DNA of 60,577 nt, the filler included, from Jimgerdemannia flammicorona (lineage: Eukaryota), in NCBI GenBank assembly GCA_003990765.1. It is 3 parts of 3 records of this genome, joined end to end, with 100 filler letters (N's around TTAATTAATTAA, not from the genome) between each part and the next. Parts side by side here need not be neighbours in the genome. Positions count along the whole stretch, not along the records: positions 20,228 to 40,353 come from RBNJ01001754.1; 2 more parts are not named here. One strand, 5' to 3'. The notes beneath the pieces are model-generated. The model did no database searches, was not told the origin of the DNA, and saw only the letters and a program-made list of their open reading frames with translations. The translations under genes and the position numbers were made by a program. Positions 2,471 through 40,453 of this stretch are shown here, piece by piece. The stretch's first letter is position 1, and every line of letters begins with the position of its first letter.

Positions 2471-4217
2471 CTTACAATTCTGAAAATGGTAGTATAAGGC
2501 AGTCTTGGTCCTGGTACAGTAATAGTCAGTAGAGTTGAGTATCTTATCTACAGAGGCTTGTGCATTATAAAGAACTAAGACTAGGAAGACAGCTACTGAT
2601 TGTCCTAAATTACTCAGGTTTATAGAGCTGATAAAACATTTGTTGAGAAGTGTAAAAAAGAATTTATAAGACCTTCTTTATCTTATCTTATAGGGTGTAG
2701 AGTAAGGAGTTTGGTATATAGTATTTTGTCTATCTGCTGATTTAATTAGAGTACTGTCTTTTATATATGAAGCTTGTCCTACTTATTACAGATGTGGCTT
2801 TAGTGAGGGCCTTCTTGAGTAGATAAATGACTTCTGCTATTTTTTCTTCCAGTAGAATGGTTGGTCTTTCTTAGAGATGTTATATAGTGAAGCTACTTGG
2901 TCTGAAAATCTTAGGATGAACTGTCAGTAGTAGGATGCAAATATGAGAAAGGATAGAACTTCCTTTGTAGAGGTAGGGGTTGGATAGCTCTTGACTTTCT
3001 ATATCTTGTGTGGGTCAGTATGAGTTCCTTAAGCTAAAACTATGTAACCTAGATATTTAACTTGGTGTTTTCCAAAGAAGTACTTCTTGGTATTAAGTCT
3101 GAGTTATGAATTTCAGATGATATCAAATACTTCATAGAGGTCTCATAAGTGTTGTTCAAATGTTTCTGAGTAGATAATTATATTATCTATATATACTAGT
3201 ACATTTCTCCCAATGGGGTCTCAATAGACATAGTTTATCATTCACTAAAATGAGGCTGGTGCATTATAGAGTCCAAATGGCATTCAGAGGTATTCATACT
3301 CATCTGGTAATAAAGGCTGTCTTGCAGATATCATTCTTGACAATAGGTATTATTTGAAATCCTTGAAACTGATTAGCAGTATTCATAAACTTGTCTTTTC
3401 CTAAAGCATTGAGAAGGTCATTAATTCTTAATAGTGGATAGACATCTACTGTAGTGATCTTATTAAGGTTTCTGAAGTCTATAACTAGTCTATCCTTCTT
3501 TCTTTGATACTATAATTGCAGGTGAAGCCCAGGGACTTGATGAGGGTCTGATAATTGTGTTTTATAGTATTTCATCTATATATTATTATTCAAACTCAAT
3601 CAGGTGGTGTGGTATTCAATAGGAGTATTAATAGATTAGTTTAGCATATCCTATATGTATAATATATTCTCTATATTGATATGGTGGAAAGTTATTATAT
3701 GTAGTGATAAATATATCTTTATATTCTTCTATCAACTTCAGTATCTATTATTGCTAATCCTTAGTTAGAGTTGTTTCAACATTGATGGCTTTGATTGCTG
3801 AGTCTTCCTCTCTAGTACCATTACTCTCACCAGAGAGAGCTTGCTGTTTCCTAAGAATTTGAAGACCTCTTCCTTATAGGTATCTATCAGTAGTTCAAAA
3901 TATCCCAATATTGTTCCTTTGGAGATTGTTACTACTTCAAAGCCCAGGTTTTGAATAGGAATATTAATTGGTGACATCTGGCCATAGATTTATTCTTCAG
4001 TCAGAAAAAGATAATACTTTTCTTGAAGTTTCATTAATTGCTAAAATATCAGATTATTGGCATTCATAGATAGATATATATCAAGGCTTCTTTGTTGATA
4101 TAGTTGAAGGAGGATATCTTCTCTTACTCAGATAGAGTGATGGATATGTGGTTTCATTTGGCAGAACTGAGCTATTGTTATCAAGTAGACTTTAATAGGT
4201 AGTTGAGAGGTTCTATT

Positions 4218-4570
4218 GATACTTCCAAAGCCTTTTTGTTCTCTCTTCATACTGCTAAGTTGATTCATATCTTAGATAGTGGACTGTGATGTCTTGATGA
4301 ACAGAATCTGACAGATGGCTTCCAAGAGATTAAAGACTTAGTGGTTTCTACTATTGTTGTAAATAATGACTTTCAGAGAACTATATTCATTCTGATCAAT
4401 GATATCTCCTTCTACTGTAATTTCTTTAGCTACTAGAGATGATATTGATGCTAATTGTCTATAGTGTCCAGATAGTATAGCAAGTGCAATCTGAAGTTCA
4501 AAGGTCCTGGTAGTCCTGGGATAGAGCATTGCCTAATAAGAGAGACAGAGGTCATATCCTACTGATCCTT
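4218..4570 (-). pseudogene. dUTPase domain of Gypsy family 1 pol
   Basis: Motifs GSVGYDL, LASISSL (RSS-like), VEGDIIDQ (GxIDxDY-like) and KREQKGFGS read on the minus strand. Confidence 0.88.
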
Positions 4571-7500
4571 CTCTCTGTGCAAGAGGGAGTTATATCTAAG
4601 ATAATAGCAGTTTAACTTGGATAATTAGCTGGGTCTTGAGAAATGATGTCTCAGTAGTTGCTATTGTAGAAAAGGATTCTCTATATTCTGGCTTAAAGAA
4701 TGGCCAATATACTTCAGTCTTTGGATTCCTTATATAGTTGAATCTAGTTTTTCCAAGGAGATCTAAGACTTCTATAAAGAAGAAGAAAAGGTTGACTCTT
4801 TGTTTGTCTTGGTGTAGTCAGTAATACTAACAGATGATAGCAAGAATTTCTAATGGCAGATTTCAGATAGAGGTCTTGTTCTTGGCTTTGCAATCTCCTT
4901 TATGATCGATCTCTTTGTATTTTTAATAAGCCCAGCAGATTTGAGATTCTTGCAGAGTAGGGTCCTTTCTTTTAACTTGATTCTTATAGACATCATTATT
5001 GAGATAAATACTTTGATATTCACACTAATAATAGGTAAAGGTCTTTCCACAGTTACAGTGTCCTTACTTGATGAATTCCTCATTTTGCTGTTTGACTTCC
5101 TTACTTATAGTGTGTCTTCTTCAATATTTATTATAGATGAGTAGAGTGATCTGAAGACCTCAGGTAATGGTGTAGATATTGTTGTTATTGTCTTTAACTA
5201 TGAGAGTCTTTAAAGATTGGTGAGAGAGAATCTTCTGTTCTTCTTTATAGGTCTTCTTGAAAACTTTGGGAGTAGGTGTATTCATATGAGGACTGGGGTT
5301 CATTTTAACTCATCTTTGTCTTCAATTACTAGTATTGGGACCTTCTGAAGATCAAGGATTCAGCAGTTACTATAGTCATCTCTTGGTGAGTAGAAATGAT
5401 TATAGTGTTCACACATATCTAGGTAGAAGACTTATATAATTCAATTTTCCTTCAGAGATAGTAGTGGTTGTATAGATAGTCCTATAAATTTATATATTAC
5501 TTCTTCATTGATAGTCAAATTAATACTTTCTTCTAAGCTTTCAGTATTGATTACTCTAATGAAAAGATCTTCTTGGCTATCTTCAGAGTTTCTAGATATA
5601 TCAAAATCACTTTCTAGTTCTTACAGAAAATTTGCTTCACTTTTGTCCTCAGTAGTAATAGATATATCTCCATATCCTTACAATTTTATCTCAGAGGCTT
5701 GACTTGATTTCCTTAATTCTTTTGACTCAATTGGTACCTTGTGCTTTTGTCCATAGAAGGTAAAGACCAGGCGTTGCTTCTTGATATCTATATTAGCTCC
5801 AACTTAGTGCAACCAGTCAGTTCCCAGGATCAGATTATAAGAGGTTACTGGAGTTATAATTGCTTGAAATACATTGAGACAGGCTCTTCCAACTTAAATA
5901 GGTATATATATTTCTAACTGTCTAAGAGGGGTGGATGCTAATCTATCTGTCATAATAATTCTTATCTTGGTTACTTCATCAATTCCCCATCCAATCCTTT
6001 CAAACATTTGCTGAGTAATGATGTAAACAGCTGCTCCAGCATTATAAGAATTCTGGAATTTTCACTATATACTTTTCCACTAGCTAGTCTTGGGGATTGA
6101 TGTTCATGACACCAGTATTCATAGACTACATGGATACTACTAGGCTCCAGTATGTATGGTCCTTAGATAGGAACTCTATTGGTATCTTTTTTAGCTTCCT
6201 TGAGGAATTTTTGCCTAACTTCTAATATATTCTTAAGAACTTGTTTGAATGTGAGGTCTATATTTTGAGTGTTGAGGTGTTCTCAAAGTGATGCTGTTTT
6301 ATAGGATTTACAACTTCTTTAATGTATAGATCCCTTAGAGCAAATTCTCTCACTTCCATTGGGCATTTCATCAGTTGAAGATTCTATGCTCATATGCTCT
6401 TCTTCTTCAAGGTCAGGCAGAGAGTTACTTCTTGATACTCTTGATAGACCAGCTTCTGGTTCAGAAGTGTCTCTTCTAACTCTCTTATCATTTTTCTGAG
6501 ATATATCTGAGGAGGAATAGCTATGTCTCAGATGTTTGCCTGTGAATATGGTTACTGGCAATGGTGGTTGGAGTGGGGTTCTTGGGGGTCTTCCTTATTC
6601 TCTGGTCTGAGCAGATACTGCATCCCAAGTTACCTTAGAGGGAAAGGCTTCAAAGTATGGATAGGTATCATCTTGGTCATGAAGCCAGGCAGCTTTTTCT
6701 TCCATTTCTTGAGTTTCTTCATCTATCTAAATGAGGTTGACATTTATATCATTGTATAGAGTCTGTTTCTTTAGCCAGAATCTCTAAATGTGACCTTGAT
6801 TTCCACAGCTGAAGCAAGTTGGGGTATAGGAACCTATTGCTAGTAAATATATTGTTGAAACTGGTAGAGCCTGAGTGGAGTTTCTGTTATCTTGCTGCCA
6901 GTAGTCTGGTCTATTATGTATCTCAATAATAATCTGCTGTCTTCCTTCTTGATTCTTTAACTGAGCAACTACAATGGCTAGATCTTTCATTTGTTTTGTA
7001 AGTATTATCATAGGGTCTTCTTGAGTTCTTAGTAGCAGCTGCTATTGTTGCCTATACTGAGTTGGAATTGAGGGTAGGGGTCTGGTCTCATAGTTGGCCA
7101 ACTGGGCTCTTAAGTAGGCATTCTCTTATTCTGGAGTCATTCTATAAGTCCTTGAGGTTTTAGCTTGAGCTGGTTCTCAATGTTCTTGAGTCTGCTAGAG
7201 TGATCTATAGTCTGCTTCCCAGCACTCTTTTACTCTATCAACTTATTTAATACTTCAATAGCCCATCCTAATAATATATCTTCAAAGCTCTAGGAATATT
7301 TCATTAAGAAAGGTAGTTGAGGCCAGGGCAAGTTGGACTGTAGATTGTAAGTTTGTCTTGATCATCTGAGCTTGAATTCAATGGTAGAAGCTTTTTGAAG
7401 TTTCATTGGTAGCTTGGCTCATATAGGTCAAAGCTTCTTGTACTTCTTATTAATGCTCAAGACTATTGAACTAAGTGCAGACCCAGATCTTATAGATATT

Positions 7501-8561
7501 AATTGTATCTGTCTACATGATCTTCATTTGCTTGAAAATTGTTGGCTGGTTCTGTTGCATGGATTTCTCCTCCAATTTGTCTTGCTGGGTTGTACTTCTG
7601 TAGAGCAGAATCTCTCAGAAGTAATTCTACAATTTAGAGCTTTCTCTGGACATTCCACCACTTAGCTACTGCTTGTACTTTGATTTCTCTGAGGAATTCC
7701 TCAACATCTTCACTATCTGTACTATGGAATTTCTAGAGATAGCTCATCTTTAGTTTGTTTTCACTGTCTGAGTCTAGTTCTAGTATAGAGTTTCTTAATG
7801 ATACTTGAGATAGAGATGATGGAGGTGCTTGATGAACTAGTAGTACTAGTAGGGGACAGTGTCTTGGTAAAGATATAAGGAGTCTGGCCCTTCTAATTAA
7901 AGCTGGTGTAGAGGTTCTTAATAATGGTGGTTCTCTGATTGAGTAATAGTAATCACTAAATACTGAGGTTCTAGCAACAGGAATAGGACTAATGTAGTTA
8001 ATGTTTAGTTGGTTTACCCCTTATTATTATAAAGTAGTGAGATTCTGTTTGTCTTACTAAGAGTCCATTTTTCTGTCTAAGTAGTGATAAAGATTAAATT
8101 TGTCTCTTAGGTGGTCTGATTGATTTCCCCAATTGTCATCTTTCTCTTGTTCTGGAAGGTAAGAGTGGTAGTCTTCTTTTTCTTCAGATTTTCAAAGTAT
8201 ACTTAATCCAGTGAAGTAGTTCAAATGATGATAGTAGTAATGTATTTACTTCTGCCTGAATCTCTTCTGTAGATCAGGGTCTGGTATTCTTCAGGAAAAT
8301 TTTCTTCTTATTCTAGGCCTTGGATGGGCTCAGGTTGTCCTCTGAGTCTTCTTCTTTCTTTTAATGTTAAATTGTAATCTACATTACTTTCTTCTTCTGA
8401 TTCAGTTTCTTGACTACTAGTTCTAAACAGTATGAGGGCTGTCCTGACAATAGTGTATGCTTTTCTTTCTGAAGCAGGCTGCTGTTGGCTAGTTTCTCCT
8501 AAATTCTCCACTGTAGATGGCTGCTGGGTTCTTGAGCCAAATGGTCAAGTCTTTAGAAACT

Positions 8562-8579
8562 TTCCCAGTTGAGCCCCCA
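8562..8579 (-). promoter_or_regulatory. Primer-binding site, tRNA-Pro-like
   Basis: TGGGGGCTCAACTGGGAA lies 3 nt after the LTR end (...CA at 8583). It resembles the tRNA-Pro PBS TGGGGGCTCGTCCGGGAT once CpG decay is allowed for. Confidence 0.75.
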
Positions 8580-8582
8580 AAA

Positions 8583-10786
8583 TGAGGCATATGATTTATA
8601 TAGATTGTTTGCTGAATTGTATGGCTCAATGTGCCACTGGATATTTATATACTATATATCTCTTTATCTCTAACAATATTCTGGCTCAATGTTCAGTTTA
8701 ACTACTATTTGATTTGTTCATATTCTCACATCAGGTTGGGGTTTGGGTGTCATTGAAGTTTGTGTCAAGTTGGAGTTTGTGTGTTGTGAGTCATTAGAGT
8801 TTGCATGTTGTAAGTCATTGGTCATATGACTGGACATTCAGAATTGCAAAAGGTAAAAGAATATATGTCACAGATTCTGGTATATTGATAATTATCCTAG
8901 TATTCTTGACTAAGTTTCCTGGTAAGTTTTGTAGGTTCTCTATGTTTTCTGGCAGCATTCTGATATTTTCTAAGTTTTGGCAGTTATTTCCTACTTAGCT
9001 ATAGTGGTATTTTAACTGACTGAAGTTTCATGACAATTTTCCATAGTGACATTAACTAGTAATTGACTCATATCTTGAATGAAGCTGTCTTGACTTATAT
9101 CTTGAGTTTTAGGATATTTTATCTGATTTTCAAGACAATTTTAACTAACTTGTATATTATTCTTGAGTTTCTGGCTGGCAATCATTTTGTGAGTTCTCTG
9201 TTTCTTGGTAGCATTCTGATATTTTTCTGAGAGATCCTGTATCCTAATAGTGGTTGTTTCCAGTAGCAGTCTTGGTTTCTGTATCAAGAGTAATTCTTCA
9301 AACTCAAATCTTAAGCAATCATTGCTCTTGTTATCTTATATATTTCTTAGAATTATTTTTGTCTCTTGGAGACAGTGGGTTTCTCTATAATCCTTTTTAC
9401 TTCAAACTCAAGCTAACTGAGGTTTATTAATTATAAGTCAAGAGGGTATTTATATAAATTTCAGACTATGTAATTGGTTGTAACTCACAATTACTAGAAC
9501 ATACTATTTAGTATACTTTTGGAAATCAACTGACTAACTAGCTAGATAAGGCTAATTTTATATTTGTGTTAAATTTGGCTAGTTAATAGGTAGTCACTAT
9601 TTGTGCAACTAACTAACTTACTCAAATTTAGTTAATAGAGCTGTCCTTATATAACTTGAAGTTCAATGAGACTGGGATTATGTCATTCTCATCCTCCTTC
9701 TCATTTTCTTCAGAGAGTCCAGCCAAATCATTTTCTATATTCTCTACATTTGTACTGAGATTAGTAGAGGGCTCTGTGGGTGATGACAGAGGACTTGTAT
9801 ATTCCTCCAGAAGGTTGTTAAGGTCTTCTTCCCATAAAATAAGCAGTTCACTCTACTCTAGTTCTTGAGATCTCCATCTAATAGTATTTTTATCCACAAA
9901 GTAGAGTATATCTGTGAAATTCTAAGGATAGCAGAATCTCAGAGGAGGGCCTTGGTATAATGCAATCAGACCTTGAAGGAACTGATCTGGATTGTCTTCT
10001 AGAATAGAGTTTCAAAGGTCTTAAACCTCATCACTCTTGACTATAATAGTAGACTGGGCTTCTTCTGTAACTATTTCTTCAAGATAGTCTGTAGAGTGGC
10101 TTATCAGTTCTTGAATGTCTGAAAACTTAATATATTCCAAGTTGAGAATGACCCAGGGTGCATGTCTAAAGATCTGGTAGACTCTCTTAGCCAACTTCTA
10201 TTCATATCTATCCAGATATATAGTATCTATAATTTCTTAAGAGCTGGCCTATGAGAGATCTTAGTAGAGATAATATTCCAACTCATATTCTTATCACATC
10301 CAGAGGCACTCAGTGGCAGTAGAGATTCTTATTTCTATTTCATAGTAGTTGAGGGTATAGTGATATGGGGTCTCTTGTAAAGAGGTTCAGACTTAGAGTC
10401 CTTTTTGTATATATTCTCATAGCTCTTTTAATATCAGAGAACATCTGATATTAGACTGATAGACCTTAGTGGTTTCTTGACCTTGCTGTTTTGCAGATGG
10501 TAGGTATTTTGTTATATAGTGAGTTTCTTATTTATAGATAATATCTCATACTCCTATTGATGCCTCTTTTATATTCTAAGAGTCTTCTTCTTTGGTCCAG
10601 AGAGTAAGGTCACCTGATTTGGAGTAGTATACTGCTGAGGTCACCATGAGTTACAATGAGTTTGGATGCAGATCATCTTCTGGTCAAGATGAGTTATAGT
10701 TGAGTCACAATTTATAACTAGAGGCTTATGAAGTCTGAGCAGTCTCCTGGCTTTTGATGTCATTGATTTCTAAGGTATTGTCATAA
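8583..10786 (-). repeat. 5' LTR of Gypsy family 1 (~2.2 kb; outer boundary approximate)
   Basis: Ends in CA next to the PBS. Minus-strand TATA-like (~9445-9458) and AATAAA (~9423-9428). Contains the LTR-ORF homolog. No partner LTR in the window to confirm the outer end. Confidence 0.65.
9649..10507 (-). pseudogene. Decayed LTR-embedded ORF, homolog of the family-2 LTR ORF
   Basis: Manual translation: PTICKTARSRNH...MFSDIKRAMR...DPYHY...ATECL...LAKRVYQIFRHAPWVILNLEYIKFSD...EAQSTI..KSDEV...ILEDNPDQFLQGLIALYQGP. Collinear with 25372-26214; contains stops and frameshifts. Confidence 0.88.
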
Positions 10787-15824: not shown

Positions 15825-15855
15825 AGGATGAGTTTGATTTATACCAGTATTTCTT

Positions 15856-20127: not shown

Positions 20128-20227
20128 NNNNNNNNNNNNNNNNNNNNNNNNNNNNNNNNNNNNNNNNNNNNTTAATTAATTAANNNNNNNNNNNNNNNNN
20201 NNNNNNNNNNNNNNNNNNNNNNNNNNN
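20128..20227. other. Artificial contig-joining spacer
   Basis: N44 + TTAATTAATTAA (stops in all six frames) + N44. Confidence 0.97.
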
Positions 20228-24293: not shown

Positions 24294-24905
24294 ATAGCCT
24301 GAAAGCTTTTGATGATTGACAACAACTGGTGCCATTAGAGCATGCTCTACTTCATCTCTAATCATTGGCGAATTCGACATATGGAAGAGCTTCAATTGAT
24401 GCTTCTCATGGTGCTGATGAGGTCGAAGCCAGGCTGGTTTAGTAACCACCATTGACATACCTATATTTAAGAGCTATTATTTGCATTTAATTAAATATAT
24501 ATACTATAATAATATTTTATTATATTTAATTAAATTAAATAAGTTAAATTTGAGTTTTTAATTTAAAAATAATTTATATTAACCATACTTTAATTTATTT
24601 AAAATTTATATTATAATTTAAATAAACTATAATATATTAAATTAAGATTATCTATTATAGAGTTATAATTAAAAAGTCTATTATTTTACTTTATTTTATT
24701 TTTTTAAATAAAGCTTAAACTCTATTTTTATATAATTAGAGTAAGCTCTAATTTGATTTAAATAGCTTAATTTCAAAATATAATTTATTTGAAAATATGA
24801 CATTGTTTACTATTTATATTATAGTAATAGATAAGTTATTTTTCAGAATACTAGTAATATAGCTACATTAGATAATAGTTTAGAAGAAAATAAATTAATA
24901 AGTAA

Positions 24906-26456
24906 TGTCATGTAGTGGTCGCTGAGTCCTTCAAATATGTCAGATTCTCTTCAAGGTATATCTCTTAGACTAACTCAAGTTTGTTATAAGCATGTTCTTA
25001 TTGAAGTGTCTTCCCAAGGTCTTATAGTCCTCAAACTTCTTATCTTTAACTATCTTATTATCTCTTAGATGGCTTGCATAGAATTGAGAGTAAGTGAACT
25101 GAAACTGACTTTATTTTAGAGGAAATAAGAGGAGTATTTATACAAAATATAATTCAATGGTTACTAAGATATAAAGCTAAATATAAATTCCAATAACTAA
25201 AATAAAATACCAGGACAGGAAAAACTGTGAAGTTTCAGAGTTGGCACTAATGGTTGTACAGGTTCAGAATGCTGATATAATTCAGTGTTATATCAAAATA
25301 CTGGTGCTGGCATTACTCAGTATTATATCAAAATGCCAGTGCTGGCATTACTCAGTATTATATCAAGAGACTTAGAGCAGAATGTTCAAGACCATAGGGG
25401 CTTTATCATCAGAGGTCAGGATGTCTTTGAAGGAGATGAGGTCCACAAATTCGTCATCATCACATAGGTCACACATTTTGTATACTTCGCATACTTCATC
25501 ATATGTCTCACATATGTCATGTGGGATGACATCATTGCCAATGCCATCATCATGTTCGGTAGCAGGGAAATCGGGGGCTCTCCAATCTATGAGGTTCTCT
25601 TCCACAAAATAGGGGACAAATGTAGGGTCTTGGGGGAGTCTAATCTGGATACTTGGGCCTTGGAATACTGAGATCAATCCTTGCAGAAATTGGTCTGGAT
25701 TGTCCTGAAGGATGGGATGCCAGAAGTATTCTACTTCATCACTATTGAGGGTGATAGTGGACTGGGCTTCTATAGCTACTCTGGCTTCTAGTGCATTGAT
25801 ACAGCAGAATGACAGGTCTCTGAAATCTGAGACTCTAACATACTCTAAGTTGGGGATCAACCATGGTGCATGCCTGAAGATCTGATGAATCTTCTTAGCT
25901 ATCCTTGTCTTACGTATATCCATGGGAGTGGTATCTTGTAGCTCTTGGGGGCTGGTCTGTGGGAACTCCTAGCAAAAGAGGTTTCCTATTTCATACTCCT
26001 GCCATATTTGGAGACATTCAGTAGCAATGGTGATCCTTGTTTCCATTTCATGGTGGTAGAGAATATAATGATAAGGGTCACCAGTATCCAGGTTAATACT
26101 AGGAGTCCTTCTTGAGTAAGTCCTCATGGCTCTTCTAATGTCTTGGAACATCCTTTCTTTGACTGAGATGCCTTGGTGATTCCTTGATCTTGAGGTTTGG
26201 TGAGCAGTAGACATTTCATTTGTGGTAAGTCTTTGAGCTATTTTGGGATTAGTAGGTCTTGTTGGTTGCTGCTACTGTAGTTCCTTGATCCTTCTTTTAT
26301 ATTCCTCAAGATACTCATACTATGGTCACAATGACTCACAGTTGGTCATCATCACTCATCTCATATACTATATGATCTTCTTGTGCTCTGATCTAGTGGC
26401 TTACAAGAAAAGACTGTCTCCTGTGCTGATGTCATCACTCTGGGGTCACCATTACA
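24906..26456 (-). repeat. 3' LTR of Gypsy family 2 (1551 bp)
   Basis: Direct repeat of 32154-33669 with one extra 35-bp tandem unit near 25290-25360. Confidence 0.96.
25372..26214 (-). pseudogene. LTR-embedded 280-codon ORF of unknown function (3' LTR copy; one premature TAG at 25969-25971)
   Basis: ORFs 25969..26214 and 25372..25923 are in one frame. The stop codon is CAG in the other LTR. Confidence 0.9.
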
Positions 26457-26899
26457 TCTTCCTTCTGAATAAGGATCTTCTCGAGTATCCTTATTCATTA
26501 GTCCAGTCCTGAAAAATTTTCTAATCTCATAACCTCTGGCAAGGGGTTGAAAAGTGGTGTTTATGGGCTGGTATCTTCCCTTTGTATTTTGGTGTGATGG
26601 TGAAGGGTTGCTCCCTTCATATAGAGCAAGGGCCTGATTCTGATCTTGACCAATCAGTTGATGGTTTGAACTCCTCTGGCTTTGAAAGTCTCACAGATGA
26701 GTAGTTACTGGTGCCATATCCCTTAGAGAATGGTCCAGACAGATAGCCTGCTGATCATGAGATATGCTGTTATGATTCACAGACTAGAACCTCATGGGCA
26801 GTCATCATGTTTTGCTTCTCTTATATAGGTTTGTGGTACTTCTTGAGTCTATTCCTATGTACTATGGTAGGCAGTATAGTTTCTGAGATTTTTCTAAGC

Positions 26900-29800
26900 C
26901 AGAAGGTAGTTCCCTTAATATCTTGCATATAGAAGAGTCCTTCCCATTTGGGCTCCAGTTTTCGTGACTATGAGGCTTCTACCATATTTTAATACAGTAG
27001 AACCTTTTCTCTGATTTGGATGGGTTCTAGGATCTTGTGATTCTTTTCTGCATTCTTCCTTGTTAGTGCTTGTGACTTGATGATGTAATCTTCAGCCTTC
27101 TTCCTGATTTGGTGTAGTCTCCTGATTTCTGCATCAACCCATCTCTAAGTTAGGTCTAGATTTGTGGCTGAGATTCTATCAGAATCTTCTTCTCTAAAGA
27201 GCAGTTCCCTTGGGGTAAAGTGTGTGCTCTGTGACCATATGTCTCATAGGACAGAGAGGGCAGTTGGGAGATAATTATCCCAATTCTCATACCTCTCTGA
27301 GATCTTTGCCAGGATGTTCTTGAGGGTCTTGTTGGTTCTCTCTGTCTGTCCATTTCCTTGAGGGTGGTATGTGGTGGTCTTGATGTGCTGGATCTTGTAT
27401 TTCTGATATATTATCTTATGGAATCCATTGACAAATTCTATACTGCAGTCTGTTGTGATTTGCTTTGGTGTCTTATAGCAGCAGATGATTTCTCAGTGCA
27501 GGAAGTCAGCTATAGAGAGGGCATTGGCTTCTTGTAATGCTCTTGCTTCTATCTATTTGGTGAAGAGGTCTATAATAACTATAATATAGCAGTTTCCTGA
27601 TAGTATTACTAGTAGTGGCCTAACGATATCCATTGCAATGTGGTGAAAGAGGATAGGCTCAATTCTTGATAACCTGGGTGCCTGGTCTTGCTGATCTTGT
27701 TTCTGTTTTTGGCACTTGTCACACCCTTTGACAAATTGGTATAGGCCTTCTTCCATCTTGGGCCACCATATGGTTCTTCTTGCCTTATCATATATATTGG
27801 TTCCTCCTAGGTATCCTTGCTCATGTACTTCCTTCATTACTTGATACTTCTTATATTTGGGTATTACTAGCTTTCCTCCTTTTCTGAGTGTAGTATTGTC
27901 TAGTTCAAACTGTTTCCAAGTCTGGTTGATGATGGTGATTGTCCAGGGTTCAAGGTGGTTGGGCATCTTCTGCTGCCTAAGGTAGCTGATTAATCCATAG
28001 TATAGCTCCTTATTCATATTGAGTAATCTTGATGAGAGTGTTTCAGGGTATCCTTGAGAGTGCATCAGCATTGGTGTTGGTTCTTCCTGAGCAGTGCTTG
28101 ACAGTACAGTCATACTCTTGTAGCCTGTAGATCCATCTGGCATATATTCCATTGGGGTTCAGAGTGTTGAATAGCCAGACAAGGGCGGAATGGTCTGTTT
28201 GAATGGTGAAGTGTTTCCCAGCTAGGTAGTAGTGGAACTTGTCTACTGCGCAAACTACTGCTAAGCATTCAAGCTTGCATGACTCATAGTTCTGTTCTGC
28301 TCTGTAGGTACCTCAGCTTGCATAGGAGATGACATATTCATGTCCATCTTTCTTCTGAGCTAGGACTGCTCCAAGTCTTATAGCACTTACATCTGTCTGC
28401 AGGATGAATTCTAGGTTCCAATCTGGTCTTCTGAGGATAGGTGCTTGGGTCAACCTGGTCTTAAGTTTATTGAAGGTTTCTTGGCATTCCTTGGTCCATT
28501 CAAATTTGGTTTCTTTCTTCTGTAGCTTGTAGATAGGTGCTGCAATATTAGAATATCCTTTGATAAATCTTCTGTAGTAGCTGGTCAGTCCAAGGAAGAC
28601 ATGGACTTCTGTGGTTGTTCTGGGTCTCAGGTAGGTTACAATAGCCTTAATCTTCATGGGGTCTATGTGGATTTTGGTCTGGTTGATGAGATGTCCTAGG
28701 TAGGTGATTTCCTGAGCTATAAACTTACATTTCTTGCGCTTGATGTAGAGGCCATACTCCTTGAGCTTCTTGAGAGCTAGCTATATGTGGTTGACATGTT
28801 CCTGTGCAGTATTGCTGAAGATGATCACATCATCAATATAGTCAAAGAGCCATTTTCCAATTTCATTGCTGAAGACTCTGTTCATTATTTGCTGGAAACT
28901 TGCTGGGGCATTGCATATTCCAAATGGCATTTGTAGGTAGATATAGGTGATATCTGGTGTAATGAAGGCTGATTTCTCACTGGCATCTTGAGTGAGACCA
29001 ATCTGATGGAAGCCTGAGAACAGATCTAAGGTAGTATAGTATTTGACTTCACTTCCAAGGGTGGTAAGGATTTCTTGAATATTTGGCAAGAGCTGTCTAT
29101 CCTTCTTGGTGATGGCATTGAGCTTTCTGTAGTCAATGCAGAGTCTTGGCACAAACTCTCCAGGCTTGCTTCCTTTCTTTGGGGTGAGGACAATAGGTGA
29201 AGCCCAGGGACTGATAGCTTGCTTGATGATTCTGGCTTCTTCCATTTCCTTGAGTTCTGCTCACAGCCATTCTCTGTAGACAGGTGGTATGGGTCTGGCT
29301 TTCTGGTAGATGGGCTTGATATCACCAGTGTCAACTTCATGGTAGTACTTGGGTTCTTAATTGTGGATATCTCTGAAGTCTGTAGCAAGTACTCCTTCAT
29401 TCTGGTACAGAATCTTGAGAAGTTGTTCTTCTAGAGGAAAGTTTTCTCCAATAGTGTATGTGTGCTTGTTCTGATCCTTGTCTTTCTTGTACTCAAGTTC
29501 AGTAATCTTGGTGGCAGCATAGGCTCATCTTCTAGTGGATCCAAAGTCTTGTTCTCCTCTCTTGATCTTGATGAGTTTGATGGCTTCAATGATCTTGGAT
29601 TTCTTGATTTCATGGATCAGCATCTGGCCAATCCTGTCATGCTTCTTGACTTTGAATGAGATGGTGGGGTTGTGATTCCTGACTATGAGGAAGATCTTGC
29701 CAGTATAATCAGGGTCAATTACTCCTCCTTCAACTGAGATTTCACTTTTGGCCAGACTGCTCCTGGTCTTGATAATTCCGGCATGGTTCTCTGGTAGCTT

Positions 29801-32033
29801 GACTCCAATTCCAGTGCCAAGTGAGGTGGTGGTCTGTGGTTTGAGGGTAGCATCTTAAATGCTGGCAAGGTCTATTCCTATGGCTCCTTTAGTCTTGTAT
29901 TCTGGGATCTTGGCTTTGGGGTGAAACTTCTTGATCTTGAGGGTGATATCTGGTTCTTGTTCCTCCTCATCATCACTATCAGCTTGAAGCTCTGGGGGCT
30001 GGTCATCTTCTTCAGCTTTTCTTTTTGCTTCAGTAGCTTCTTGCTCATATTTCTGTTAGCAGATTTTCCTGACTTCACTGATACAGGACCAGCAGTCATT
30101 CAGGTGTTCAGAGCAGTACATCCTAGTACCATGGGGGCATCTTCCTTGAGGGGCATAGCCATTGATGATCTTGTTGTACCACTGCTCATCTGTGAGCTTG
30201 GGTGTCTTGTTCTTATTCTTGTTCACCGAGTGCATGAAGACTTCTCTGTCCTCCTCATCTCCTTCCTCTATGTCTGGTAGAACTTCTTTGTAGACATTGA
30301 TAGAGACTCATATCTTTCTTCCTCTATAGTTGATCTGCATCTTCTGGGCATTGAGGTCAATGATGGCCTTGGCCTTGTGAAGCTATTGGTTGCCAATGAG
30401 GATGTCATAGTTGGTAGCACTTGTAATAATCATATCTACTGGGATGATAGCTCCTCCTATCTTGATGGGGACTTCTTGGATTTTTCCAAGGGGGGTAGCT
30501 CATGTACCATCTGCTGTGACATAGACCATCTTGGTAAACTCTTCAATATCCCAACCTAGGCGGTCAATTGCCTTCTTACTCATAAGGCATCCTCCAGCAC
30601 TGGTATCAATGATGGCATCAAAGATACAGTCTTCAATCTGACATAGGGTATAGGCTGATGTCTTGTGCTGATCTTCAGATTCTTCAACTGAGTTTTTGGA
30701 TTCTTCCTGCATTGTGAGCTTCTACAATCTTGTATTTTTGATTCTTAACAGTAGTTGCAAGTCCTACTCTCAACTGTTGTCTGAAGGCAGGGACTTTGGC
30801 TAGCTGTCCAAAAGTAGCATTGACCTTCTGTTCCTTGAGGTCTTTATAGATATCATACTGGTGGATCTTGGTCTTGTATAGCTTCTGTTCCTTCTTGCTT
30901 TCACTTTCTCCTAAAACTGGAGTAATGCCTTCAATGATTTGGTGGGTAGTTTCATCTAACTCCATGTCTTGATCAATCTCCTCAGATTGAGTCTTGCTTT
31001 GAATAGTGATAGCTGGGGCCTTCTTTGGTCTTCCAACTGGCTTACTGTTGCTTTTCTTGTCATAGGGCTTGGACCGGGTTCTGGTACCTTCAGTAGCAGG
31101 GTAGAATTCGTGCTTCTCATAGTATTCTTCATCATCAGTGTCACCAATCTCCTTGATGACTACTGCATTGGTTTGTTCTCTGGTTTTGCTAGCATTGCTT
31201 AGTTGGGCTTTGTATCTTGTTTTGGTCATGCAATTCTTTGCATAGTGGCCTTCTTCTCTACATATGAAGCATGTGATATTGTATTCTTCTGTAGCAGCTG
31301 CAAATCTCTGCACTGGTCTTCTGTTGGCACTTCAGACTTCTCTAACAACATCACCAAGGTATGCAGTCATCTCAGTGAACTGCTTGGCAAGTTCCTCTAC
31401 TGGGTCAGTTTTAGCTGTCTTGGGGGTAGGTGGGGATAGTTGTCTATTTACAACTATAGCAGATATGATACTAGTTGGCTTTGATGGCTCCATCTTGATG
31501 CCAGTTATTTTCTCCATTGAGTGTTCGGCAGGGTGTCTGGCAGTCCAATATCTCTGTACAAAGACCACTTTCTGATCAAGGGTCAGTGCAGCTGGGGTAG
31601 ACCAGATTGTTAGGGCAATTTCTGAGTGAACTCCTTTGAGGAAGGTTGAATCCGCTATTTGTTCCTTGAGGGCATCATCATAGCCAGCCAAGACAATCTG
31701 GTGGCAGATTCAGGTATAGAATGAGTTAGGATCTTCACTAAGTCCCTGGCAGATAGTATTGAGTTAATTCTTGAGAGCTTGCTTGATCTCTTCAGTATAG
31801 TATGTTGTTCTGAGAAAGGCCTTCATGTTGGCAAGTTTGGCTGCACCATTATTAGCAATAGTGGCTGCATTGAACTTGTCTCTGATGGGTCCTCTAAGGC
31901 TGACTAGTAGAAGGGCCAATTGTGCATCTATACCAAAGACTCATACAGTGGTAAATTATTCAAAGTCTTCAATGAAGGTCAGGATTGACTCTTCAGTAGT
32001 ATATCTATAGAATGTGGGGAGATGCATTTCCAT
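26900..32033 (-). pseudogene. gag-pol of Gypsy family 2 (gag, CCHC, protease, Cys/His insert, dUTPase, RT, RNase H, integrase)
   Basis: CFICREEGHYAKNC; AIIDTSAGG; dUTPase 29530-29890; SPWASPIVL, LDLFSGFHQI, YIDD; LQTDVSA; integrase HEQGY...CDKCQ, IAMDIV, LEPKWEG. Scattered stops and frameshifts. Confidence 0.95.
29530..29890 (-). pseudogene. dUTPase domain of Gypsy family 2 pol
   Basis: Manual translation GAIGIDLAS...GTGIGVKLPENHAGIIKTRSSLAKSEISVEGGVIDPDYTGKIFLIVRNH...RGEQDFGST contains trimeric dUTPase motifs 1, 2, 3 and 5. Confidence 0.95.
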
Positions 32034-32153
32034 CTTATCTTGAATTATTGCAGGGGTGACTCTTGTAGTTAGGGTAGTTGTTGTGGGAATTGTTCATTTT
32101 TCAGCTTGAAAGTGAGGGATTTGTCTTGAATCACCAGCCAATGGGTACCAAGT

Positions 32154-33669
32154 TGTCATGTAGTAGTCGCTGAGTCCTTCAAATATGCCAGATTCTCTTC
32201 AAGGAATATCTCTTAGACTAACTCAAGTTTGTTATAAGCAAGTTCTTATTGGAGTGCCTTCCCAAGGTCTTATAGTCCTCAAACTTCTTATCTTTAACTG
32301 TCTTGTTATCTCTTAGATGGCTTGTATAGAATTGAGAGTAAGTGAACTGAAACTGACTTTATTTCAGAGGAAATAAGAGGAGTATTTATACAAAATCTAA
32401 TTCAATGGTTGCTAAGATATAAAGCTAAATATAAATTCCAATAACTAAAATAAAATGCCAGGATAAGAAAAACTGTGAAGTTCCAGAGTTGGCACTGATG
32501 GTTGTATAGGTTCAGGATGCTGGTATAATTCAGTATTATATCAAAATGTCAGTGCTGACATTACTCAGTGTTACATCAAGGGACTTAGAGCAGAATGTTC
32601 AAGACCATAGAGGCTTCATCATCAGAGGTCAGGATGTCTTTGAAGGAGATGAGGTCTGCGAATTCATCATCATCACATAGGTCGCACATTTCACATACTT
32701 TGCATGCTTCATCATGCATCTCATGTATGTTGCACAGGATGATATCATCGCTAATAATGTCATTACATTCAGTAGTAGGGAAATCGAGGGCTCTCCAATC
32801 TATGAGATTCTCTTCCACAAAATAGGGGATAAATGTGAGATCTTGGGGGAGTCTAACCTGGATGCTTGGGCCTTGGAATACTGAGATCAATCCTTGTAGG
32901 AATTGGTCTATGTTGTCCTGAAGGATAGAATGCCAGAAGTCTTCTACTTCATCACTATTGAGGGTGATAGTGGACTGGGCTTCTGTAGCTACTCTGGCTT
33001 CTAGTGTATTGATATGGCAGGATGACAGATCTCTGAAATCTGAGACTCTAACATACTCCAAGTTGGGGATTGACCATAGTGCATGTCTGAAGATCTGATG
33101 GATCTTCTTAGCTATCCTTGCCTTACATATATCCATGGGAGTGACATCTTGTAGCTCTTGGGGGCTGGCCTGTGGAAACTTCTGGCAGAGGAGGTTTCCT
33201 ATTTTATACTCCTGCCACATTTAAAGACATTTGATAGCAATGGTGATCCTTGTTTCCATTTTACAGTAGTAGAGAATATAATAATAAGGGTCACCAGTAC
33301 TCAGGTTAACACTAGGAGTCCTTCTTGAGTGGGTCCTCATAGCTTTTCTGATGTCTTGAAATATCCTTTTTTTGACTGGGATGCCTTGGTGGTTCCTTGA
33401 TCTTGAGGTTTGGCGAGCAGCAGGCATTTCATTTGTGGTAAGTCTTTGAGCTATTTTGGGATTGGTGGGTCTTGTTGGTTGCTGCTACTGTGGTTCCTTG
33501 ATCCTTCTTTTATATTCCTCAAGATACTCATACTGTAGTCACAATGACTCACAGTTGGTCATCATCACTCATCTCATATACTATATGATCTTCTTGTGCT
33601 CCAATCTGGTGGCTTGCAAGGGAAGACTGTCTCCTGTGCTGATGTCATCACTCTGGGGTCACCGTTACA
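32154..33669 (-). repeat. 5' LTR of Gypsy family 2 (1516 bp)
   Basis: Direct repeat of 24906-26456, adjacent to the PBS. Minus-strand TATAAAT ~32384-32390 and AATAAA ~32358-32363. Confidence 0.96.
32585..33427 (-). pseudogene. LTR-embedded 280-codon ORF (5' LTR copy; one premature TAA at 33221-33223)
   Basis: ORFs 33221..33427 and 32585..33220 are contiguous in frame. The stop codon is CAA in the other LTR. Confidence 0.9.
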
Positions 33670-34380
33670 GTAAACATATTTTATATTTATATTGTCATTG
33701 GTGGCGTAATTCGGATGTTGGGTTACAGAATCAGATAACAGAATTTGTTATACTCGGGATGTATCCTTGGATTTCCACATCATACCACCTCGATACAACC
33801 TACAAGACGTAAATCGTATGATCTTGCAACGTTCTTCTGGATTTACTTGCCGTGATGAAGTGGGCGAATTTAGTATATGGGCTGTGGTGTGTTACGAATT
33901 CTTGCGTTGATGGTAATCCCCCCTCCCCCATTATTTTAACATTTTGGCTAGCCATGTAAATGTGTATTATTAATGGGAATATAGTGAAATGTGCAGCATT
34001 ACAACAAGATTATTTATGTATTAGCAAGTTGAATAGAGAATTATCATAAAAAAAGAGGGAAGCATGGCACATACAAATACATCAATTGTATTGACTTGCC
34101 AATGCATGTAGTTTTTTAGCGAATTTTTGAGGCAAATATATTTGACAAAAAGGAGTCACCAACTAGTTCACGAACACAATTATTTCTTGGAAACCCACTA
34201 GAGACCAACTATATATATCAAAAATATGGACGAGCATGTGAAAAAAAAAGGGGGGATGCAATAAATGACGCCTTTGCGCCAATGCACCACCAGTACATTT
34301 TAACCCTGCACGCCGATCTTACGTATGTAGCCATGCGTGCAGTCCTGATCTTCCGAGCACAAAGCGACATTTTGACTCAG

Positions 34381-34393
34381 TATCATATAAAAG
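34381..34393 (+). promoter_or_regulatory. Putative TATA box of NmrA-like gene 1 (equivalent at ~38963-38975 for gene 2)
   Basis: TATCATATAAAAG ~120 bp upstream of the ATG, conserved in both paralogs. Confidence 0.55.
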
Positions 34394-34508
34394 CCTCCAT
34401 TCCAACGTCTTTCCATCATATCTTCACAACACAACAACCGAGCAATTCAAGCACACTTCCCTCCTCCCAAAAAAGAACCAAAATCAACCAACCCACCGTC
34501 TCTAAAAA

Positions 34509-36160
34509 ATGGAATCACGTACTACCGCTGCCGCCAGCACCAACGCCAGAACCAACGCCAGCGCCGCCACCCGCACCAAGCATGTTCTCACCATCACCGG
34601 CGGCGACAGCCACTTCGGCCACTGCATCGCCTCGTACCTGCTCCGTGAGTCGGAGCGCGACGGCCGCGACCGCCACAGCGAATGCCGCATCCGCGTCCTG
34701 TGCTGTCGCGAGAAAAACTGCGACGATTTGAGGGATATGGGCGCCGAGATTGTTGTAAGTGTTCCTTTGGCGTACTTTCCTTTTTATGTTACAGATATTT
34801 GTCAGGGCAGAATGGATGGTTACATGGAAGTTAATGTAGATGGTCTTGGATAGGAAATCGACTACGAGGACCGCAAGTGCCTTCGTCGCGCCTTCCGCGA
34901 CAGCGAGTACGCCATCTTCGTGCCGGAAATGACTCGCAACCGGGTCCGCCACGGAGAGTGTCTCATCGAGGCTATGGAGAGCGAGAATATTCGCCACGTC
35001 CTCATGATATCCACGTGAGCTCTCAAAACTGGCAATTCTCCGGGATTGGGATGATGGTGATTTAGGCACTAAAGGATTCCTCTTTTGCTTTTCAGGATCG
35101 GCGCCGAGTCTCACAACCGGGAGCTCAGAAACCTCTGCGAATTCAGGGAGCTTGAGAATTACCTCAAGGACAACTTCAACAGAGGAAGGTGGTGCATTTT
35201 CAGGTAAAAATACTCTCACTTCCTATCAGGTTGCTCATACGCACGTCCAACGCGTCTGACGATCCCCTCGCTACTCACAATTTCCGCGCAGGCTCGACTT
35301 CCTCCAGCAATGCTTCCTTTTCTGGGCCCCCACGATCCAGGAAGAGCGCGTTCTCAAAATGTGCATCGGCCGCGACGGTCGTTTTGCTCCCGTCAATATC
35401 CTCGACGTCTGCCGCGCTATCTACTGTTCCCTGACTCGCCACTACCGTGATAGCGACCGTCATGGTGACCATGGCCGCACCCAAACCCAAACTCCGGCCC
35501 AGCCTCAGGCTCAGGCCCCGGCTCAGGTCAAGGGAATCTCGCAGGGTTTCCGCTGGGTCCCTCTGGACGAGCGCCACCACCGCCGCGTGTACTGCCTCAC
35601 GGGGTGCAAGGCCGTTTGCGGAGATGAGATTGCGCGCATTCTCGGCGACGCGATTGGCGAGCGCGAGATCCGGTTCAAGGACGTGTCACGTTCCGAGATG
35701 AGGAAGGAACTGGAGAATTGGCGTGACGAGGATGGAAAGCGCGGTAGGCATGGAGATGACCGTCGGGACGATGGGCGTCGCGATGGTGGTAGGAAAGACG
35801 ATAATAACGACAGAGAGCGCGACGGCCGCCGCCATCGTGATGGCAAGTTCCGCCACGGCATTCCTCTGAGGAAGCACCTTAACGATACTACCATTGAGAC
35901 GGAGCTCGACTTCTTTGAATATGTCAAGTTGGGTGGTGCTGATTTTACTTCTGGTAGGCCCCGTGGTTATATCGCTGCCCATCGAAACTCATCACGTCCA
36001 CATACAGTTCCGCTAACTCCTCCCTTATTGCGCAGGTGATCTCGAAGATATCATTGACAAGAAGCCCGAATCGCTTGAGGAATTCTTCAGGGAGCATCGT
36101 GACGAATTTAGGGGTGATGATGACAAACGCAACCGCGACGAGGTCGAGCGCCGGAAATGA
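34509..36160 (+). CDS. NmrA-like / atypical SDR NAD(P)-binding Rossmann protein, 5 exons (34509-34754, 34854-35014, 35096-35203, 35292-35953, 36036-36160)
   Basis: GT-AG introns join in frame: LTITGGDSHFG...IRVLC...GAEIV/EIDYED...AIFVP...HVLMIS...RLDFLQQ...FAPVNILDV...YCLTG...DLEDIIDKKPESLEEFFREHRDEF, ending TGA at 36160. Confidence 0.88.
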
Positions 36161-37499: not shown

Positions 37500-38490
37500 T
37501 TGTGTGATCGACCTAGGGTTCAGTGGTTGGCTTGGAAGTAGTATCATCTTCTTGATAATCTCTCCCATCGCAGGCCTTACCTTTTCCCTTCCATCTCTTT
37601 TCCCAGGCTTCATCCCTGTCCAGCTCCCCGACCGGGTTAACATCGCCCGGCTTCCTCTTTGCCGCCACGGACGGCTCCGCCTCAACCTCAATCCCCAAAT
37701 TCGCTTTCTGACTTGTTCGCGCTCGCCACGACCGAAGTCTTCAGCACCGTTGCACAATGGGGGCACTGCAATCTGAACTTGACACAAGTCATCACCTGGG
37801 GAGGATTCGTCGTCTTTGCCGTCTTCGTCGTCATCTTCAACTTCGGAGTACTGTAATCGGTAGTGTGGTTGAGCTTGTTTTCATCTTGCAGCTACATGCA
37901 ATCATCACACAGTTCTGACATACCATTGTCCTTCAGAGACCCGGCTATGGCGCGTGCCTCCTCCTGGCCAATCTCGTTAGCTGAACACGAACAAGGAAGT
38001 TTGAGTGAACATGCACAGATTGTGAGCTTGATTCCATAATGCAGCTGCTTCACACAGGTCTGGCATACCGTAGAGATTAAGCTCGGTCAAGGTCGTGTTC
38101 TGCTTCAGAGATTCGGCTAGGGCGCTTGCCACCTCTTCGTCAATGCCATTTTCTTTAAAATAAATAGGGGATGAGCGGACACACACAGATCGTTAGCTTT
38201 ACTCTATCACAGTTCTGACATACGTCCGAGATTCAGCTCGGTCAAGGTCGTGTTCTGCTTCAGAGACTAGGCTAGGGCGTGTTGCCCCTCTTCACAAATT
38301 CTATTACATTTAAAGTGAACAGGGGATGAGCGAATACGCACAGATCTTGAGCTTCATTCCATTACACAGCTGCACGAAATGCTTCAAACAGTTCCGACAT
38401 ACCGGAGAGATTTATTTCGGTCAAGGTCGTGTTCTGCTTTAGAGACTTGGCTAGGGCGCGTGCCCCCCCCCTCAATATTTTAACATTTGG
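37500..38490 (-). pseudogene. RNI-like leucine-rich-repeat gene remnant, one ~28-aa repeat per exon
   Basis: Three to four exons of type GARALAKSLKQNTTLTEINL / VASALAESLKQNTTLTELNL / NEIGQEEARAIAGSLK, each followed by a GTATG donor. One exon has an in-frame TAG. No 5' part upstream of ~38490. Confidence 0.82.
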
Positions 38491-40353: not shown

Positions 40354-40453
40354 NNNNNNNNNNNNNNNNNNNNNNNNNNNNNNNNNNNNNNNNNNNNTTA
40401 ATTAATTAANNNNNNNNNNNNNNNNNNNNNNNNNNNNNNNNNNNNNNNNNNNN
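40354..40453. other. Artificial contig-joining spacer
   Basis: N44 + TTAATTAATTAA + N44. Confidence 0.97.

Follow-up and report, generated by a model that had tools for sequence, protein, structure and literature searches.

We analyzed a 60,577-nt stretch of DNA from Jimgerdemannia flammicorona (GenBank assembly GCA_003990765.1; three parts of three records joined end to end), here called the window. It contains a Ty3/Gypsy long terminal repeat (LTR) retrotransposon, el1, and each of the two LTRs of this element carries a copy of one and the same open reading frame (ORF). The frame, referred to below as the LTR gene, and the protein that it would encode are the subject of the present analysis. 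The following features of el1 were identified, listed in the direction of the element; coordinates preceded by a tilde were converted from the residue numbers of Pfam matches.

33669..24906, minus strand: el1, a complete but dead Ty3/Gypsy LTR retrotransposon with 5' LTR, primer-binding-site (PBS)-like site, gag, protease (PR), dUTPase, reverse transcriptase (RT), RNase H, integrase (IN), polypurine tract (PPT) and 3' LTR
33670..33673, minus strand: target-site duplication TTAC, 5' flank
32154..33669, minus strand: 5' LTR, 1516 bp, TG..CA ends
33427->32585, minus strand: LTR gene, 5' LTR copy, 280 codons and a stop; single in-frame TAA at codon 69 (33223-33221)
32138..32150, minus strand: PBS-like 13-mer beginning with TGG, 3 nt past the 5' LTR, not matched to any tRNA
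26457..32153, minus strand: internal region with many stops and frameshifts
~31227-31274, minus strand: zf-CCHC
~30377-30643, minus strand: protease
~29534-29917, minus strand: dUTPase (Pfam E 2e-23)
~28691-29179, minus strand: RT
~28112-28423, minus strand: RNase H
~27697-27864, minus strand: integrase Zn domain
~27361-27645, minus strand: integrase core
26457..26466, minus strand: polypurine tract AGAAGGAAGA, directly adjoining the 3' LTR
24906..26456, minus strand: 3' LTR, 1551 bp, TG..CA ends, one extra 35-bp repeat unit
26214->25372, minus strand: LTR gene, 3' LTR copy (P0001), 280 codons and a stop; single in-frame TAG at codon 82 (25971-25969)
24902..24905, minus strand: target-site duplication TTAC, 3' flank

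Self-comparison of the region 23.5-35.5 kb gave a single long direct repeat, composed of blocks of 426 nt (93.4% identity) and 1152 nt (89.5%) with a 35-bp indel offset; the aligned LTRs were 88.8% identical across 1551 columns and differed by one 35-bp indel. The target duplication of 4 bp, TTAC, was present at both sides of the element. Pfam searches of the minus-strand read-through translation revealed, in this order, the zinc knuckle, PR, dUTPase, RT, RNase H, the integrase Zn domain, and the integrase core, distributed over three frames with many interrupting stops; a chromodomain was not detected in the read-through frames. The dUTPase thus sits between PR and RT. The paired TG..CA LTRs, the target-site duplication, and the order gag-PR-RT-RNase H-IN assign el1 to the Ty3/Gypsy elements. 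Among the matches listed, the nearest named pol relatives were animal and Chara (charophyte) proteins with 34-44% identity, and pol relatives bearing a dUTPase accounted for 7 of the 120 matches, all of them metagenome proteins (45-51% identity). Soil metagenome contigs of the el1 family filled 30/30 bins of the element in 4/4 runs. One of the metagenome contigs (X2 record 9) spans the junction of the PPT and the 3' LTR (26405-26592); as an assembled contig, it is silent on transcript ends.

The open reading frame in the LTRs and its relatives

A preliminary description of this DNA, made from the sequence alone, had proposed an accessory gene encoded in the LTR of a dUTPase-bearing Gypsy element: the same 843-bp sense ORF in both LTRs, occupying more than half of the LTR and broken in each copy by one stop at a different codon (82 and 69). 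All these particulars were reproduced. The ORF, 843 nt in length, occupies LTR positions 243-1085 of 1551, its ATG lying 242 nt downstream of the PPT and the LTR start, and the position of the stop in either copy is a sense codon in the other. The label "sense" is correct because the ORF and gag-pol are both on the minus strand of the window. Since the gene is duplicated along with the LTR, every full element has two copies of it. No similarity between the LTR protein and the gag or pol products of el1 itself was found at E<=1e-3.

The length of the frame was compared with that in 1000 dinucleotide shuffles of each LTR. With one stop allowed, 299 codons are open, a length that 0/1000 shuffles per LTR attained (maximum 224). 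The stop-free runs alone, of 198 and 211 codons, are merely at the extreme tail of the shuffled LTRs, in which runs of about 200 codons do arise (maxima of 210 and 198); this is the one point in favor of the view that there is no gene at all and that LTR composition or conserved regulatory DNA left a frame open incidentally. Composition alone is therefore a weak argument for a gene, and homology is the strong argument.

Protein sets from metagenomes contained about 20 intact relatives of the LTR gene. When 5.8 billion clusters were searched with a word index and an inclusion cut-off of E<=0.01, 6 clusters were returned (16 member proteins; E 1e-120 to 4e-34), all of them open; they have 55-77% identity to the query by BLASTP, and the metagenome contigs that encode them are short (2375 nt at most). 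Among 1.84 billion representatives, a profile search returned 5 clusters, 3 of which are more distant and keep the motifs; the distant members P0019, P0021, and P0022 are 47, 39, and 30% identical, respectively, to the segment from the window. The intact relatives are 270-340 amino acids (aa) long, the MP[AP] start is kept among the homologues, and indels are limited to the C-terminal tail and are in frame. No relative was found in prokaryote genomes or in IMG/VR, and no longer or fused form among 2298 candidates, the latter being weak evidence.

The scan of metagenome contigs yielded a sole locus, L001, a 1345-nt contig with an intact 323-codon ORF. Comparison of the two el1 copies with L001 gave a nonsynonymous divergence (dN) of 0.35-0.37 and a synonymous divergence (dS) of >2. 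The resulting dN/dS values of 0.176 and 0.095 are rough because dS is saturated, which weakens them as evidence of constraint. The differences were in excess at third codon positions (106/68/142 and 97/68/143 for positions one, two, and three). A dN/dS near 1 had been named in the preliminary description as evidence against its proposal; between lineages the ratio is 0.10-0.18, with the same reservation on saturation. Against the view that there is no gene thus stand the failure of the shuffles to reach the observed length with one stop, the intact homologues down to 30% identity with their amino acid pattern kept and their tail indels in frame, the excess of third-position differences, and a dN far under dS. 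We regard that view as effectively refuted by these comparisons and give it almost no credence. The intact homologues and the dN/dS values argue that the LTR gene, located wholly inside the LTR, is a genuine, conserved, and selectively constrained protein-coding gene, and they bear out the accessory gene proposed for this dUTPase-bearing Ty3/Gypsy element.

A second dUTPase-bearing Gypsy element, el2, is also located in the window and includes a third copy of the gene.

10507..9631, minus strand: third copy of the LTR gene, heavily decayed, of the 323-aa subfamily, in the 5' LTR region of el2; frameshift near 10367 and several stops
10576-10566, 9454-9446 and 9428-9423, minus strand: flanking motifs GAATATAAAAG, TATAAATAC and AATAAA, respectively
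2825..9630, minus strand: body of el2 downstream of the gene copy, 3' part missing; gag zinc knuckle, PR (~6058-5729), dUTPase (~4571-4188) and RT (~3313-2825)

When 18 proteins of the family were compared with the window by tblastn, exactly three loci were matched, namely the two el1 LTR copies and 10507..9631; a hidden Markov model of the family run over the six frames of the window found the same three loci and nothing more. The third copy lies immediately upstream of gag-PR-dUTPase-RT of el2. At the DNA level, the sole alignable part of the el1 and el2 LTRs was positions 216-878, that is, the ORF (64-66% nucleotide identity). The ORF products share 47% identity over 167 aa and 62% over 42 aa, and the pol proteins 31% (PR), 27% (dUTPase), and 37% (RT). 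By these values, the conservation of the LTR gene between el1 and el2 at least equals that of pol, which would reflect either strong constraint or exchange between lineages. The span of el2 (2825-10660, minus strand) has a GC content of 0.32-0.38, far more AT-enriched than el1; the interval separating the end of the LTR gene from the protease exceeds that of el1 by ~1.5 kb, and the 3' part of el2 ends near 2.8 kb, at the start of GC-rich sequence of LINE (long interspersed nuclear element)-like appearance.

Two observations restrict the generality of the gene. The LTR context was seen at three loci and one contig (L001), and the six-frame profile search found neither a gene copy upstream of gag nor recognizable 5' LTR motifs in el3, a third dUTPase Gypsy element (plus strand, ~47-58 kb). 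Truncation or decay may account for the latter; either some members of the group do not carry the gene, or the LTR of el3 was lost. PR of el3 is located at ~48.5 kb, dUTPase at ~50.2-50.6 kb, and RT/RNase H/IN at 55.8-57.7 kb, and its pol is split by a GC-richer block of ~5.5 kb, an insertion.

The lack of a copy upstream of gag in el3 would also suit an ORF that is a mere passenger, in which case a single capture brought a host gene, or a fragment of one, into an LTR, where it plays no role in the life cycle of the element. LTR retrotransposons are known to transduce genes (PMC7264820), and the family is small, with 5 clusters in the 1.84 billion representatives. Such a passenger would nevertheless have been kept in two lineages that share no more than 27-37% identity in their pol proteins, under constraint (dN/dS of 0.10-0.18) and conserved better than RT, together with the TATA motifs that flank it. 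No member has a Pfam domain, and the search of 2298 candidates mentioned above, weak as it is as evidence, found no longer or fused relative of host type. We therefore consider a captured passenger improbable, and return to the gene as a constrained component of the element.

Both el1 copies of the ORF are dead, with one stop each and many transition substitutions, as the whole element is decayed. The 138 aligned sites that differ between the LTRs comprise 132 transitions and 6 transversions; by context, the C/T (G/A) differences fall into 81 CpA, 34 CpC, 9 CpG, and 8 CpT, and 6-7 CpG are left per LTR. The differences are of the type produced by hypermutation through cytosine deamination, and the process could be either similar to repeat-induced point mutation (RIP) or driven by methylation. 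The 9% divergence of the LTRs is almost wholly due to deamination and is consequently no clock for el1; the insertion may be young. Between themselves, the two ORF copies differ at 43/23/35 sites in the three codon positions, with a dN/dS of 0.49; the lack of a third-position excess and this ratio fit unconstrained decay after insertion.

Putative promoter and polyadenylation motifs around the gene

The following motifs were located in the el1 LTRs outside the ORF.

33507..33517, minus strand: upstream TATA box GAATATAAAAG, 5' LTR
26294..26304, minus strand: upstream TATA box GAATATAAAAG, 3' LTR, ~80 nt before the ATG, invariant in 4/4 DNA copies
32390-32382, minus strand: downstream TATA box TATAAATAC, 5' LTR
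25142-25134, minus strand: downstream TATA box TATAAATAC, 3' LTR, presumed promoter of the genomic RNA, invariant in 4/4 copies
32363-32358, minus strand: AATAAA polyadenylation (poly(A)) signal, 5' LTR
25115-25110, minus strand: AATAAA poly(A) signal, 3' LTR
25282..25366, minus strand: 35-bp tandem repeat, 2.4 copies, 3' LTR, downstream of the ORF stop and upstream of the second TATA box; one unit fewer in the 5' LTR

The flanks of the gene were aligned in four DNA copies, namely the two el1 LTRs, el2, and L001. Amid flanks that are poorly alignable, GAATATAAAAG is invariant in all four copies, 60-80 nt before the ATG. Likewise, TATAAATAC is invariant and followed by AATAAA in 4/4, the two being 27 nt apart, start to start, in el1. 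The ORF had earlier been placed upstream of TATA-like and AATAAA signals of the LTR, and both motifs do lie downstream of it in both LTRs; the conserved upstream TATA box is an addition to that account. The 35-bp tandem repeat of el1 would be enhancer-like by its position. A second ATG, out of frame, is present 5 nt upstream of the ATG of the gene (26215-26225 and 33428-33438, minus strand) in el1 only, being absent from L001 and el2.

The conserved TATA box of its own upstream of the ORF makes an LTR-internal promoter more likely than a spliced subgenomic RNA. A splice-acceptor model for such an RNA was dropped, as inspection of the four-copy alignment by eye showed, upstream of the ATG, no conserved motif resembling an acceptor. 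The arrangement of the motifs indicates that the gene probably lies in the unique 3' region (U3) of the LTR as a self-contained transcription unit with its own promoter. In this model, the upstream TATA box would start an mRNA of ~1.1-1.2 kb for the LTR gene, which would end at the AATAAA site of the same LTR. The downstream TATA box, located after the 35-bp repeats, would fire the genomic RNA at or just past AATAAA, so that the poly(A) signal would effectively be in U3 and be used at the 3' LTR only, with a short repeat region (R) and a unique 5' region (U5) of ~200 nt. In the 3' LTR the mRNA of the ORF would be 3'-co-terminal with the genomic RNA. Either LTR could give rise to it without splicing, and so, in principle, could a solo LTR.

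Several points count against this model. The assignment to U3 and the expression of the gene are deduced from the positions of motifs, and L001, which starts at the upstream TATA box and ends ~85 nt past AATAAA, is silent on transcript ends. UA-rich elements beside A-rich elements are typical of fungal poly(A) signals. In a fungal host the UA-rich motif and AATAAA could therefore form a bipartite poly(A) signal, and the ORF would then be in R.

On this alternative, the ORF belongs to R or to the leader, the upstream TATAAAAG is the sole promoter of the LTR, and the downstream TATAAATAC with AATAAA serves as a poly(A) signal only. The genomic RNA would start ~190-250 nt into the LTR with the ORF as its first cistron; in a variant, the ORF would be translated from transcripts prematurely polyadenylated in the 5' LTR. 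In keeping with it, the upstream TATA box is as well conserved as the downstream one, both being invariant in the four copies, and in some Gypsy elements of plants gag is preceded by an ORF. The alternative requires, however, an R of ~1.1 kb, read-through of the strong AATAAA of the 5' LTR at 1.1 kb from the cap, and translation of gag behind an 843-nt ORF. The 27-nt spacing of TATA and AATAAA and the 35-bp repeats upstream, moreover, would fit a promoter with a poly(A) signal just before R. We accordingly judge a location in R or the leader unlikely and rate it below the model of two promoters with the gene in U3.

Properties and possible role of the LTR protein

The first ~70 residues of the protein are basic in the close relatives P0001, P0004, P0011, and P0013, with a net charge of +3 to +7 and 9-13 Lys and Arg residues; the basic N-terminus of the preliminary description thus holds for them, but not for the distant members, in which the same segment is nearly neutral (net +1). 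The segment is followed by a core of ~140 residues with the conserved blocks W[QH]EYE, A[KR][KR][IV]HQ[IV]FRHAPW.IPNL.Y, LE..VA.EAQSTI, NP.L.DNPDQF, FQGP, and VPYFVEEN.IDWR. The C-terminal tail is acidic and variable in length (59-126 aa, net charge of -15 to -27); it carries acidic-hydrophobic motifs of the DLI[ST]F type, and P-x-x-L-N-F is conserved near its end. The tail had been described as acidic and Cys-containing, and only the first of these characters proved to belong to the family. The 3' LTR copy (P0001) has 4 Cys in the tail and the four tailed homologues counted have 0, the 5' LTR copy being outside this count; the SFCC/SSCH stretch of the window copies aligns with SARR/SSRR of the homologues. 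The cysteines of the window copies are products of decay, arising from the cytosine deamination described above.

Neither a transmembrane (TM) segment nor a signal peptide was found: the N-termini are hydrophilic, and no 19-residue window exceeds 1.05 on the Kyte-Doolittle scale, in agreement with the initial reading of the sequence. Sag, the protein that the LTR of mouse mammary tumor virus (MMTV) encodes, belongs to the type II membrane glycoproteins. Lacking a hydrophobic segment, the LTR protein is therefore neither env-like nor Sag-like. An AlphaFold2 (AF2) model of the core (198 aa) had a mean predicted local distance difference test (pLDDT) score of 52 and a predicted template modeling (pTM) score of 0.45; residues 16-135 had a pLDDT of 50-78 and were predicted as helical with a beta-hairpin. 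Taken together, these features point to a soluble protein with a helical core, a short beta-hairpin, and a long acidic tail.

No domain had been recognized in the protein at the outset, and the profile and structure searches that had been proposed as checks, the latter run with the core model of pLDDT 52, found no relative of known domain or fold either. P0001 and five intact homologues matched 0 Pfam families, the Sag models included; the profile search of PDB gave 0 matches at E<=10; the VIA fold search with the core model gave 0 chains at Z>=5 among 48161; and Foldseek, used with the core model of moderate quality, had a best E of 3.5 in PDB and 0.59 in BFVD. These four outcomes, together with the near-neutral N-termini of the distant members and a full-length model of P0004 that was unusable (pLDDT 38), tell against any particular function. 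PHROGs contained no match to the LTR protein under E 0.09, and ESM Atlas no related named cluster (best named score 0.80). A match of P0002 to ATG5_HBR (15.9 bits against a cut-off of 21.3) was dismissed as chance, and small helix-turn-helix (HTH) regulators, with a best VIA Z of 3.7, were treated as noise. The comparisons indicate that the LTR protein defines a new protein family without a recognized domain.

As to its role, the product may tentatively be regarded as a nuclear regulatory or adaptor protein, the likeliest candidate, at well under even chances, being a transactivator of the element's own promoter. Such a protein would raise transcription from that promoter or bring a host factor there, in the manner of transactivators in complex retroviruses; in foamy viruses, a basal internal promoter feeds the activator of the main promoter. 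Of the features of an activator of the acidic-tail class, the acidic tail with its strong net charge was observed, and the only leads for the core were the small HTH proteins (VIA Z<=3.7), which are within noise. A regulatory or adaptor role of this transactivator-like kind is a guess.

The same gene and LTR unit could instead produce a protein that acts after transcription or against host defense rather than as an activator. It could, for instance, serve as an adaptor in exporting or packaging the unspliced RNA of the element, suppress RNA silencing or repeat-directed mutation, or act as an adaptor through which a host restriction factor is directed to degradation. The Arg-rich N-terminus of the close relatives (9-13 Lys and Arg) and the hydrophobic motif conserved at the end of the acidic tail would be in line with these roles. 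A precedent is Cer1 of Caenorhabditis elegans, whose accessory protein is reported as necessary for the nuclear export of the genomic RNA (PMC10309623). The window copies were, moreover, destroyed by a C-to-T process, so there is a host defense to counter. An RNA-binding or other domain was, on the other hand, not found with Pfam, the basic character of the N-terminus does not extend to the distant members, and no feature separates the candidate roles from one another or from an activator. We hold a role after transcription or in counter-defense to be possible but doubtful. The explanation that best covers the observations as a whole is an LTR gene in U3 with its own promoter and a regulatory or adaptor product, and we place it slightly above even chances.

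Other features of the window and comparison with known systems

Scanning the window for Rfam families and for tRNAs produced 0 matches. From a list of 65 open frames of 110 aa or more, 23 were scanned with Pfam; two RVT_1 matches only and no host-gene family were found. GC-rich (~0.5) repeats with a GC skew of +/-0.4-0.58 occupy positions 1-2400, 14000-19500, 40400-44000, and 58000-60577. They contain RVT_1 fragments (17701-18300 and 58184-58696) and occur in inverted copies (15170-16392 vs. 41950-40727, 85%; 710-2366 vs. 19488-17822, 75%). In appearance they are LINE-like, and they are not AT-enriched, unlike the Gypsy elements. Two pairs of 44-nt N runs (20128-20227 and 40354-40453) each border a GC-skewed repeat.

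A direct repeat of ~1.8 kb with 88-91% identity (33918-35716 and 38463-40307, 2.7 kb apart) begins ~250 nt past the 5' flank of el1; ORFs of 203-259 aa in and between its copies had no Pfam match. The two copies could be the LTRs of a non-autonomous element or have arisen by tandem duplication. Another direct repeat, of 457 bp and 90% identity (120-576 and 846-1302), lies beside a long A-run, which appears as a lysine run in the minus-strand translation.

Judged by analogy of layout, MMTV is the closest structural analogue of the LTR gene arrangement. The LTRs of this virus are ~1.3 kb long because the 3' LTR encodes Sag, so that there, too, an accessory protein of ~300 aa is located inside an unusually long LTR and its gene is duplicated with the LTR (PMC3026287). 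The two systems differ in that MMTV is a retrovirus and el1 a Ty3/Gypsy element, that the LTR protein has no hydrophobic segment and no match to the Sag models of Pfam, and that the LTR gene has its own conserved TATA box just upstream.

Foamy viruses share with el1 the presence of 3' regulatory genes whose promoter is separate from that of the LTR: the map of the prototype foamy virus (PFV) shows an internal promoter and, in the interval from env to the LTR, the ORFs of tas and bel-2 (PMC7828637). Their internal promoter lies in env and the ORFs are mostly outside the LTR, whereas in el1 both promoter and ORF are within it. The LTR protein has no sequence similarity to the tas/bel products, and an activator role is for the LTR protein only a candidate. 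A likeness to Nef or Tas-Bel was not found either, with no Pfam family for P0001 and the five homologues and no Foldseek match at E<=0.001 in BFVD or PDB for the model of moderate quality.

Among retrotransposons, the additional ORFs (aORFs) of plant LTR retrotransposons are mostly found after pol and before the 3' LTR, in either orientation, sense or antisense (PMC7264820), and the bdelloid families Juno, Vesta, and TelKA have a dUTPase between PR and RT (PMC5408684). As the passages cited from these sources describe them, the plant aORFs and bdelloid ORF3s resemble the LTR gene as lineage-conserved extra genes, mostly of no assigned function, and the bdelloid elements also share the order PR-dUTPase-RT; they differ from it in being outside the LTR and single-copy per element, while the ORF of el1 is downstream of the PPT, in the repeat. 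With its ORF inside both LTRs and no TM segment, el1 does not group with the plant aORFs or the env-like ORF3s. Gypsy elements with a dUTPase are also reported from fungi (basidiomycetes and Tuber), namely PosPlaTy3-5 of Postia placenta, elements of Phanerochaete, and Tmt1 of Tuber, in one case between PR and RT (PMC2864245). They resemble el1 in being Gypsy elements with a dUTPase, and the passages cited mention no LTR-borne ORF; an "add. ORF" is marked in Figure 3 of the same source. In el1, as noted, no chromodomain was detected.

A protein gene internal to the LTR of an LTR retrotransposon was not found in the full-text literature searched; Repbase and GyDB are outside the scope of that search, and a prior entry there is not excluded. 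The LTRs of retrotransposons are generally treated as non-coding promoter and terminator modules. A gene in an LTR goes unseen because annotation pipelines mask LTRs. The observations suggest, as a tentative proposal that we hold at less than even chances, that the LTR is a complete gene cassette, with its own promoter, an ORF of 270-340 aa, and a shared poly(A) signal, and that its products form a new family of retroelement regulators, for example, Tas/Tat-like activators or counter-defense adaptors.

A conserved and constrained protein gene wholly inside a Gypsy LTR extends to retrotransposons a layout of which a few complex retroviruses (MMTV sag) offer examples, and it is a concrete candidate for a retrotransposon-encoded regulator or counter-defense factor. 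If the cassette proposal is true, these elements would be "complex" Metaviridae. The gene could pass between lineages by LTR recombination, which would explain its conservation above that of RT. With two copies in each element, it would persist in solo LTRs as a gene standing alone, raising the possibility that solo LTRs remain protein-coding.

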